DNA from: a virus
Lineage: Duplodnaviria > Heunggongvirae > Uroviricota > Caudoviricetes
DNA length: 19,942 bases
IMG/VR virus record: IMGVR_UViG_2879748301_000007
Direction: 5' to 3' (one strand)
Made by a program: the position numbers. Below, piece after piece: positions 6,001-9,000 of the stretch; the stretch's first letter is position 1, and every line of letters starts with the position of its first letter.

Positions 6001-9000
6001 GGCTCCTGAGCGCCATAAACAGGGCTTTACCTGTCAGCTCTTTTGTCATGCGCTCTCCCATGGCGTAGCCGACAATTTCGCACGTATAAACATCTTTGAT
6101 GCCAGCGAGGTACAACCATCCCTCCTGTGTGGCAACATACGTCAGGTCCGCCACCCAGACCTGATTTGGTGCTGTAGGAGCGAACGTCTGGTTCAGCAGA
6201 TTTGGCGCAACTGGCAGATTGTGGTTCGGGTTCGTAGTCGCTCTGAACTTGCGTTTCTGCTTACAGCGTAGCCTCAGCTCCTTACGAAGACGTGCCAGTC
6301 GGTCACGACCAACGATGATGCCATTCTCTGCCAGCTCCGTCTGGAGCCGCCGGGTTCCATATGTTTCGCGAGTGCGGATATGTGCCACCTTAATCTCCAG
6401 TTTTAACCGCTCATCACTTTGTTTTCTGTCTGAGGGTTCATGCTGTACCCAGTTGTAATAACCGCTCCTGGATACACCAAATACCTGACACATCGCTTCA
6501 ATGGGAAATTGTTGTCGCCATTGTTCGATTAACGCGTATTTTTCAGCGACTCCTGTGCAAAATACGCTGTTGCTTTTTTTAATATATCGCGCTCAAGGCG
6601 AGCTTCATTTAACGCCTTACGCAGTTGCAGAATTTCAGATTCCAGTTCAGCCACCGTGCGGGAACCAGGAGTACCGAGCCCTTTTCTGGCGGCGGTAACC
6701 CATTGTCCTAAAGTGCCTTCAGGAAGGGATAATCGGGAAGCGCCTTCACTGATCGAAAGTTGATTTTCAAGAACCGTTCTGACAGCTTCGGCTTTGAACT
6801 CTTTAGAGTAACGTTGGGTTTTTCTGCTCATTATTAGCTCCTTCTGATGCCATTTTATTTCAGGAAGGAGTGTCCGTTAAACTCAGGCTACCTCAAACCG
6901 CTCCTGGATACACCAAATACCTGACACATCGCTTCAATGGGAAATTGTTGTCGCCATTGTTCGATTAACGCGTATTTTTCAGCGACTCCTGTGCAAAATA
7001 CGCTGTTGATTTTTTTAATATATCGCGCTCAAGGCGAGCTTCATTTAACGCCTTACGCAGTTGCAGAATTTCAGATTCCAGTTCAGCCACCGTGCGGGAA
7101 CCAGGAGTACCGAGCCCTTTTCTGGCGGCGGTAACCCATTGTCCTAAAGTGCCTTCAGGAAGGGATAATCGGGAAGCGCCTTCACTGATCGAAAGTTGAT
7201 TTTCAAGAACCGTTCTGACAGCTTCGGCTTTGAACTCTTTAGAGTAACGTTGGGTTTTTCTGCTCATTATTAGCTCCTTCTGATGCCATTCTATTTCAGG
7301 AAGGAGTGTCCGTTAAACTCAGGCTACCTCAATATGCTTTCCTTCCAGGTAAACCTCGTGAACAATGTTATCAGTAGTTGCAACAGTGGCTTCATAATTG
7401 GTGTTCATGTTTTTCTCCTTAATTAAGGTTGAGCGAATCCCTGCCATTGCTGGCATAAATTCAGTTTCGAATAGTCAGTTAATTAAAGTTCGTGTGCCAT
7501 CTGGTCTTTTTCGGCGCAGATTTCACTACAATATTTGCGTTTCTTTTTCCTCATCATGGTTCCGTGCATGTAAATAAGTTCAGCAGTGTAAGCCTTATCA
7601 GGGCTTACTTGTCTGTCACACAGGCCATAAGCACAGGGAATTAAATCGGGATCACCTTTCTACTGGAGGTTTTTTTTGATTATCCATAACAAATTTTTGA
7701 TTCCGGTGTGTGTTATGGTCTGCTGAGGTGCAGAGGTAAAACAATAATCAAGCATAGGGTTCATATCCGTAGCTCCATTTTTATTTTAAAGAAAGTAATT
7801 GTTCCACAGTCATATTTTTAATTGCGCCCCGGTTAACAAGAGTCCATCCCTGTTTTTCCAGATAAAACCGGAAAGTCTCCAGGGTACAGACCAGTGCGCC
7901 ATCAGGAACGGTTTCGGTGAATTCGACATTGCCGAATTTGTCGAAGTGAACAACCAGAGTGCGACCATCACCCGGAATCATCTTGTCTGCAGGTGGGGTG
8001 TTATTCTGGCGCAGTTCGGCCTCCATGCGGTCGAACTCAGCAATGTAGGCTTCCTTGAATGCGGCGGCTTTTTTGCCAGTGAAGCCCATCACCAGGAAAA
8101 CGAAGCCGTTTTTGGTGATTTGGTACATTGGGCGTTTTTCGCCTTTGGCGTCGGTATAGGTGACGGGCTTAAAATTAAGCCGGTTAAACTCCGGCGAGCA
8201 TTCGAGAGTTTCGATCTTCTGAATAACGTTTTTGTGCATTTTCCGGAAGAACTCCGCAACCGCAACAGACGTAGTGACAGCGCGACCATTTTCGATGGTT
8301 GCGTCAGGGTGAGAAAGGGTAAGGATAGTAGCCATGATGGCAGCCTCGATAGTCAGTTTAAATGACTCACCACCAGAGGTAGCAATCTCATGGGTGGTGA
8401 GACGCACAGGGTTGCTACAACCGGTGACTACCGAAACCGGCCAGCCTTGCGGCTGCCCTGCACGCCCCACCATAATCTGAATGTGGCTGTGCTTGACGCA
8501 TAAAAAAACCGCCTGAGCGCGGTTATGCGCAGTAGTCATCGTCGGGGTAGCAATCCCGGCACCCGTTTTATGAGGTGCAGGTGCACTATAATTCCACCCG
8601 TTCTGGTTTTCAATAGCTACATTCAACATTTTCTCTTTCCTTTCATCACCGAAGTGAACTTTGTTGATGCGGTGCCTGGTGCCTCCAGGTGACGTTAACC
8701 AGTTAACAATTACAGTTGGCTTTCCCACCCAAACCAATAAGGACTAACATGACTTTTAACTGTGCCGCGTGCGCATAGCCGCATTCACCGCATCACAAAA
8801 TTCACTTTAAAAAGGGCGGACATCAGCCAGCAATTAAACCGATGCCGCCAACTGGTACTTCACACAGCAATGTCGTTATTTACAACCGGAAGCGCACTCC
8901 CACCATTTAAATTTCACAGACAAGACCGACTCTTTATGGATACCGGAAATGCGCCTTCGTGTTGTGCCCGGTTTTATTTCACCACTTCCGGGCTTTGGTG

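Follow-up and report, generated by a model that had tools for sequence, protein, structure and literature searches.

Whether a hairpin found at the prophage position of dicF encodes DicF, some other small RNA (sRNA) or nothing beyond a transcription terminator is the question raised by the virus record IMGVR_UViG_2879748301_000007 of IMG/VR, a stretch of 19,942 nucleotides (nt) of Caudoviricetes DNA that we call the window. An initial annotation of its minus strand had proposed a DicF-like sRNA at 8870-8809, lying in a DicA-repressed operon and likely to target host mRNAs such as ftsZ. We find that the element is clearly homologous to dicF in its position and its terminator, but that KilS, an sRNA of the Escherichia coli K-12 prophage Rac, resembles it more closely than does DicF of prophage Qin. 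We consider it probable, with a likelihood of roughly 70%, that the element makes up the 3′ body, with the intrinsic terminator, of an sRNA of the KilS type, and that it represents one allele of a polymorphic early-left locus in lambdoid prophages of the Rac/Qin type, in which DicF and KilS are the two characterised alleles.

A terminator hairpin with a KilS-like 5′ part

The minus-strand string TTGGCGGCATCGGTTTAATTGCTGGCTGATGTCCGCCCTTTTT is present at 8851-8809 exactly as it had been quoted. In a fold of 8875-8805 it forms a 13-bp RNA hairpin with one bulged U, in which 8849-8837 pair with 8828-8821 and 8819-8815 around an 8-nt loop (8836-8829); a run of five U comes next, at 8813-8809. The GC stem-loop and U-run noticed earlier on this strand are thus real features, with the stem spanning 8849-8815. 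The hairpin has a folding energy of -23.8 kcal/mol (z = -2.84; 0 of 200 dinucleotide shuffles were as stable) and is picked up by a consensus terminator scan. Its stem base, GGCGG/CCGCC, is common to DicF and KilS, in agreement with the earlier remark that the stem ends resemble those of DicF, and the terminus CCGCCCUUUUU, which is the annotated 3′ end of both dicF and kilS in K-12, is the same in the window element. By analogy with DicF and KilS, we predict that the U-run serves as an Hfq-binding tail.

The K-12 noncoding RNA gene kilS (b4833, 98 nt) occupies the equivalent position in Rac, between sieB and kilR; it ends in a terminator of this type, and the spacer beyond it is shared with the window. 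Upstream of the window hairpin, a 43-nt stretch matches the 5′ part of KilS with a single mismatch, and an alignment of the whole unit pairs 91 of its 95 positions, with 6 mismatches as well as indels. Conservation is seen in the 5′ 43 nt and in the final 20 nt, and the 3′ half of the terminator is identical. The upstream promoter block is likewise common to both. Judged by sequence, the closest known RNA is KilS, and DicF is more distant. Since the 43 nt upstream match KilS, the probable unit is 8903-8809 (~95 nt) rather than 8870-8809; the initial annotation had therefore placed the hairpin correctly, but its coordinates took in no more of the probable RNA than the 3′ two-thirds. The 5′ end at 8903 is taken from that of K-12 KilS and the 3′ end from the last U of the terminator. 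The 95-nt unit is predicted to fold into three small 5′ hairpins followed by the terminator (-32.5 kcal/mol, z -2.07).

The differences are concentrated in two places. Neither the loop nor a stretch of approximately 10 nt ahead of the stem matches KilS or DicF: the pre-stem reads AAGUACCAGU in the window element and UAGUCC in KilS, and the loop reads UUUAAUUGCU in the window element and UUUUUUUCUUGAAGUUC in KilS. The pre-stem segment (8850-8868) is a candidate seed and, from 8860 onward, specific to the allele; its counterpart in DicF is the 5′ tail that pairs with xylR (PMC5069750). In addition, the putative promoter of the window element carries a T-to-G change at -12, and the module downstream is isrK-C4-Rha, not kilR, so that the element does not lie in a kilR 5′ untranslated region (UTR).

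KilS itself was predicted from Hfq RIL-seq data, in which interacting RNAs are ligated and sequenced, was verified by northern blot and was absent in a Δhfq strain (Bar et al. 2021, PMC8175672). Accumulation occurs in stationary phase, transcription begins at a mapped start of its own, and its RIL-seq partner is yncL (PMC8175672). The KilS paper makes no mention of DicF (PMC8175672), and dicF and kilS are listed as separate genes in one K-12 annotation record.

A separate similarity concerns KilS and the core-genome sRNA RprA. K-12 KilS (locus L127, 6406-6503) and RprA (locus L129, 173-278) contain an identical 16-nt block, AUUGCUGUGUGUAGUC, preceded by AACGA, and the Rfam RprA model scores KilS at 28.1 bits, below threshold. 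The window allele (8873-8863) keeps only AUUGCUGUGUG, 11 of the 16 nt. We found no paper that notes the KilS-RprA similarity. Pairing with the rpoS leader, which the RprA-like block had prompted us to consider, was not supported, with values of -16.9 kcal/mol for RprA, -1.4 for KilS and -5.2 for the window element.

DicF, KilS and the window element as alleles of one locus

The element occupies the position of K-12 dicF: it lies after ydfA-type small genes and before a conserved spacer, in a DicA-controlled early-left operon. In an alignment with Qin, the stem base and U-run match the K-12 dicF region and the ~190 nt 3′ of the hairpin are near-identical to the dicF-dicB spacer, including its long-range helix, and a DicA-type repressor and a DUF1391 gene are found upstream in both prophages. 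The 5′ tail and the loop do not match; the divergence of the loop from DicF had been pointed out earlier and is borne out by this alignment. Specifically, the DicF loop with its anti-Shine-Dalgarno sequence ACUCCG and the DicF 5′ tail CUGGUGACGUUU are both replaced. The window element also differs from DicF in its surroundings, with no dicB downstream and with an upstream body that is KilS-type rather than a ydfC-dicF leader.

The Rfam DicF model, proposed as the check on this identification, does not recognise the element at its curated gathering cut-off of 48 bits; a scan of the whole window in gathering mode returned only isrK, C4 and sok. With relaxed thresholds, RF00039 matched 8864-8814 at 28.6 bits (E = 3.3e-4, a value that holds only for the 551-nt search in which it was obtained), and this match spans the model end to end (positions 1-52). 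By the same procedure K-12 dicF scored 76.7 bits and Rac KilS 39.1 bits. We infer homology to dicF from the shared position, stem base, U-run and ~190-nt 3′ flank, despite the sub-threshold score. The earlier description as DicF-like thus holds for position, stem ends, U-run and 3′ spacer, but KilS is the nearer relative.

To place the element among its relatives, IMG/VR was scanned for the conserved flank and reference loci were added, giving 122 elements. About 80 of these have the DicF sequence, ~25 are of the KilS type and 6, including the window, are of the window type; the remainder have other loops and 5′ tails, some of them clear mosaics. A stable hairpin (-12 to -24 kcal/mol) is found in every one of the 122, and the loops and 5′ tails fall into a few discrete, recombining types, each conserved across many loci. 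Among the mosaics in IMG/VR, one (L011) joins the DicF 5′ tail to a different loop, and two (L045 and L072) join another 5′ tail to a window-like loop. In a further element, L104, the 5′ tail and the loop likewise belong to different types. These mosaic alleles (L011, L045, L072 and L104) suggest recombination within or at the conserved stem base. Linkage between allele and neighbouring genes is loose, with the DicF loop mostly accompanied by dicB and the KilS loop mostly by kilR; the window loop has a KilS-type body upstream and isrK-C4-Rha downstream in all four loci with enough sequence.

A covariance model of the family, built from 11 other alleles with the window type and its near relatives left out, matched 8868-8809(-) at 44.9 bits (E about 4.5e-11). 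This was the sole significant match in the window, the next on either strand scoring 12.3 bits (E 0.14). The hairpin is more than a chance structure, and it is a member of the DicF/KilS family. Taken together, these comparisons show DicF, KilS and the window element to be allelic forms of a single locus, in which the terminator scaffold is common to all and the seed regions are of discrete types that recombine. Among prophage sRNAs, DicF is a textbook case, and KilS was named only recently; their unity as alleles of a single seed-variable locus is the main general point of this analysis. Sequences resembling dicF were reportedly described in other prophages by Faubladier and Bouché in 1994.

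The window-type allele itself is uncommon. Some match to a 111-nt query was found in 4293 of 5426 complete E. coli genomes, but only 79 records reached at least 90% identity. In the phage collection only KilS-type copies were found, in Rac-like phages and none of them annotated, and no window-type allele was present; a literature search with the allele sequence gave no matches.

Table 1. Coordinates of the element and of associated features in the window
Feature	Position	Strand	Basis or description
DicA-like repressor, 135 amino acids (aa)	11210..11617	-	62% identity to K-12 DicA, E 2e-60; HTH_3 domain
DUF1391 (YdfA/YdaF-like) small protein	10852..11061	-	Pfam PF07151, 90 bits; first early-left operon gene
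Second small open reading frame (ORF)	10631..10804	-	no Pfam match
IS2, 1331 bp	9086..10416	+	simple insertion, 5-bp target duplication
Putative KilS-type extended -10	8910..8918	-	spacing to annotated KilS 5′ end; conserved region; function presumed
Predicted full-length KilS-type sRNA, ~95 nt	8809..8903	-	alignment with K-12 kilS; fold
Pre-stem segment GCUGUGUGAAGUACCAGUU, largely single-stranded	8850..8868	-	allele comparison
Terminator hairpin	8815..8849	-	13 bp, one-base bulge, 8-nt loop 8829-8836; fold, terminator scan, family model
U-run UUUUU of intrinsic terminator	8809..8813	-	expected 3′ end
Conserved structured spacer	8640..8808	-	directly after terminator; alignment and fold
isrK-C4 module	8390..8613	-	isrK 8578-8502, C4 antisense RNA 8477-8390; then Rha-domain ORF

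Predicted expression and mode of action

In the mechanism that we propose, transcription would start near 8903 from a KilS-type extended -10 promoter (~8918-8910) and would end at the hairpin with its U-run (8849-8809), giving a ~95-nt RNA; read-through from the DicA-like-repressed promoter may formerly have been an alternative source. As with DicF and KilS, the hairpin and U-tail would be bound by Hfq, and pairing in trans with mRNAs would fall to two allele-specific stretches, the pre-stem GCUGUGUGAAGUACCAGU and the loop. Transcripts that read through the terminator would enter the conserved 22-bp helix of the spacer, a probable RNase III site.

The operon context has been altered by a transposon. 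The initial annotation had reported two small-protein genes upstream on the minus strand and an IS2-disrupted region, and both were recovered, the former as the DUF1391 ORF and a second small ORF, and the latter as a clean IS2. Compared with the uninterrupted locus of E. coli VL40 (L001), window positions 10417 and 9085 correspond to L001 positions 6005 and 6001, and the IS2 is 99.7% identical to the K-12 IS2E fragment. The claim that the element lies in a DicA-repressed operon is accordingly correct for its position, but the IS2 now separates it from the DicA-like-controlled promoter. With the IS2 in between, any expression here is more likely to be driven by a KilS-type promoter of the element itself than to be under DicA control.

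Should this allele be expressed in Shigella, a pathogen would possess a so far uncharacterised Hfq sRNA, and the series of alleles would offer a natural experiment in the way that sRNAs gained by horizontal transfer change their targets. A tentative extension, which we regard as possible without favouring it, is that the locus swaps seeds: a fixed scaffold, with the stem base, U-tail and flanks serving as recombination anchors, would accept interchangeable 5′-tail and loop cassettes and so provide each prophage with a differently targeted Hfq sRNA, and the window allele, fixed in a Shigella flexneri lineage, would regulate host mRNAs other than those of DicF and KilS. The AgvB/AsxR-type prophage sRNAs of enterohaemorrhagic E. 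coli (Tree et al. 2014, PMC4104026) offer a likeness of concept only, being short Hfq-bound RNAs at fixed lambdoid prophage positions with a conserved 3′ terminator and variable seeds. They differ in that their locus lies downstream of PR′ rather than in the early-left operon, in that they have no sequence similarity to the window element, and in that their anti-sRNA function has been demonstrated, while the window element is known from sequence.

Terminator, relic or trans-acting RNA

Several observations weigh against assignment of the element to a KilS-type sRNA. Where K-12 Rac and most alleles have TGtTAAATT as the putative extended -10, the window has TGtGAAATT; this T-to-G change at -12 is carried by the window-type alleles, within a promoter block that is conserved across loci. 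The IS2 lies between the element and the DicA-like-controlled small genes and promoter. Covariation in the hairpin was uninformative among 15 alleles, with an invariant outer stem and one pair changed on both sides. In five other loci the 95 nt of the window type have 0-1 mismatch, and the Rha genes there differ by 7-12%; but the 182 nt upstream are equally conserved within this group, and so the low divergence may stem from a mosaic block of recent origin and not from selection acting on the RNA. Finally, expression and targets of the window allele are predictions, made from its sequence rather than from transcripts, and the method that we used to predict pairing (see below) did not recover KilS-yncL, which ranked 11 of 43.

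An alternative is that the element is only a terminator, or a decaying relic, with no role in trans, an unconstrained loop and tail, and an RNA that is not made at useful levels. We consider this unlikely, although it is the strongest of the competing explanations. The invariant features, the GC stem base and the U-run, are precisely the ones that a terminator requires, and it can dispense with the variable parts; the prophage is heavily disrupted by IS2 and IS3-family copies, the promoter is changed at -12, and no predicted target stands out. On the other hand, DicF and KilS are both Hfq-dependent RNAs with mapped partners (PMC5069750, PMC8175672). Moreover, the variable parts occur in a few discrete types that are conserved across many loci, with no continuous drift, and loci that have diverged elsewhere carry the window-type allele unchanged or almost unchanged. 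We continue to favour an sRNA of the KilS type.

Far less probable is the reading of the initial annotation, in which the element is a functional equivalent of DicF, an antisense RNA that would block ftsZ translation and division upon inactivation of the DicA-like repressor. In favour of this, the element has the position, terminator base and 3′ flank of dicF, its sub-threshold match to RF00039 is full-length, and a DicA-like repressor lies upstream; however, the element falls below the Rfam cut-off, is cut off by IS2 from the DicA-like-controlled promoter, and has lost both the ACUCCG loop and the 5′ tail of DicF. We scored pairing as the free energy difference on cofolding (ddG) and ranked each target against 42 background start regions (rank of 43). 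DicF, as a control, was recovered on its three validated targets, ranking first on ftsZ (-16.3 kcal/mol) and xylR (-15.4) and second on pykA (-9.5). For the window element, whether in the long version or the short one, the values on the ftsZ start region were -3.8 to -4.6 kcal/mol (rank 18-29 of 43), which is background, and no pairing was predicted with xylR (rank 16-25) or pykA (rank 8-16). The failure on ftsZ and xylR fits the replacement of the DicF loop and of the 5′ tail that pairs with xylR (PMC5069750). The prediction that this RNA would target ftsZ is therefore not upheld, and ftsZ is an unlikely target.

Below the model threshold and lacking the target-pairing sequences of DicF, the element should not be annotated as DicF, nor should it be assumed to act on ftsZ. 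The practical upshot is a negative one: an effect on ftsZ or on division is not to be assumed for the window element.

The same method cannot nominate targets for the window allele, because it missed KilS-yncL, the only reported partner of KilS. A local complementarity of 11/12 between GUGUGAAGUAC and the yncL 5′ UTR is a lead only. Within the window, exact complementary 9-12-mers on either strand, which might mark targets in cis, occur as often as expected from shuffles. Two other scores were tried. With RNAduplex run without accessibility, the duplexes of all sRNAs were long and meaningless and could not be told apart from those of shuffles, and this score was discarded; a windowed score combining duplex and accessibility recovered DicF-xylR and DicF-pykA but missed DicF-ftsZ, and the cofold ddG was used instead.

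The last alternative, a GC hairpin beside a T-run by chance, can be dismissed: terminator-like sites are not enriched as a class in this region (9 in 7500-12500, with 5.8 ± 2.3 expected), but the fold statistics and family model given above, and a position and flanks conserved in thousands of E. coli genomes, had already refuted it.

The downstream spacer and the isrK-C4-Rha module

The ~190-nt spacer that follows the terminator is conserved between dicF and dicB in Qin (locus L003, 3433-3642), between kilS and kilR in Rac (locus L127, 6223-6409) and in the window. It is closed by a ~22-bp long-range helix, AAGUGAAUUUUGUGAUGCGGUG ... CACCGCAUCAACAAAGUUCACUU, and has a folding energy of -58 kcal/mol (z -3.26). 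In DicF, RNase E generates the 5′ end, and RNase III an alternative 3′ end. We infer that this helix corresponds to the site of the RNase III cut that yields the 72-nt DicF (PMC5069750); the spacer could serve as an RNase III site or as a regulatory leader for dicB, kilR or isrK. Matches to STnc100 (RF02076) in the spacers of the window, Rac and Qin reached 28-34 bits, below threshold, and are not used as evidence. The STnc100 lead was dropped: a preprint on Pas sRNAs puts the true STnc100/PasD near the Q/late region, and that preprint mentions neither DicF nor KilS.

The isrK-C4-Rha module takes the place of dicB (Qin) or kilR (Rac), and both isrK (61.5 bits) and C4 (75.7 bits) score above Rfam gathering thresholds. 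The best sigma-70-like promoter of the region, TTGAAA-17-TATAGT (10/12) at 8613-8585(-), lies just upstream of the isrK start, and because of this proximity the module is probably served by a separate promoter, which lies downstream of the element. An ORF publicly annotated as ‘Rha family’ (282 aa, ATG at 8629) overlaps the isrK and C4 genes in the region 8309-8629(-). The Pfam domain ‘Ash’ (PF10554) covers residues 50-143 of this ORF, exactly the isrK-C4 region, and the Rha domain begins at residue 155; the overlap may mean that the RNA and protein annotations are in conflict.

The prophage and its Shigella-type setting

The same IS2 insertion and the same allele are found in Shigella flexneri SFBU1023, and the IS2 insertion is also present in a 4.44-Mb genome labelled E. 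coli ECMA0423; the IS2 junction was found in none of the complete RefSeq E. coli genomes. Adjoining the prophage remnant is an ORF for an IpaH-type effector with LRR_TTSS and NEL E3 ligase domains (window 1-1812(+)), which points to a Shigella-type chromosome. The prophage is an insertion-sequence-riddled remnant in such a chromosome. An IS3-family element is present in two full copies of 1264 bp and two partial ones (2611-3874, 5632-6895, 4801-5631 and 6896-7331), which are IS600-like according to the annotation of a related locus and which break up the recE region, with an Exonuc_VIII fragment left at 4175-4819. Cro-like and YdaT genes diverge from the DicA-like repressor. Farther along, a hok/sok pair occupies 15678-16003(+), with sok RNA scoring 117 bits and a Hok/Gef ORF at 15791-16003, and a QueH-family gene lies just upstream of it at 14934-15620.

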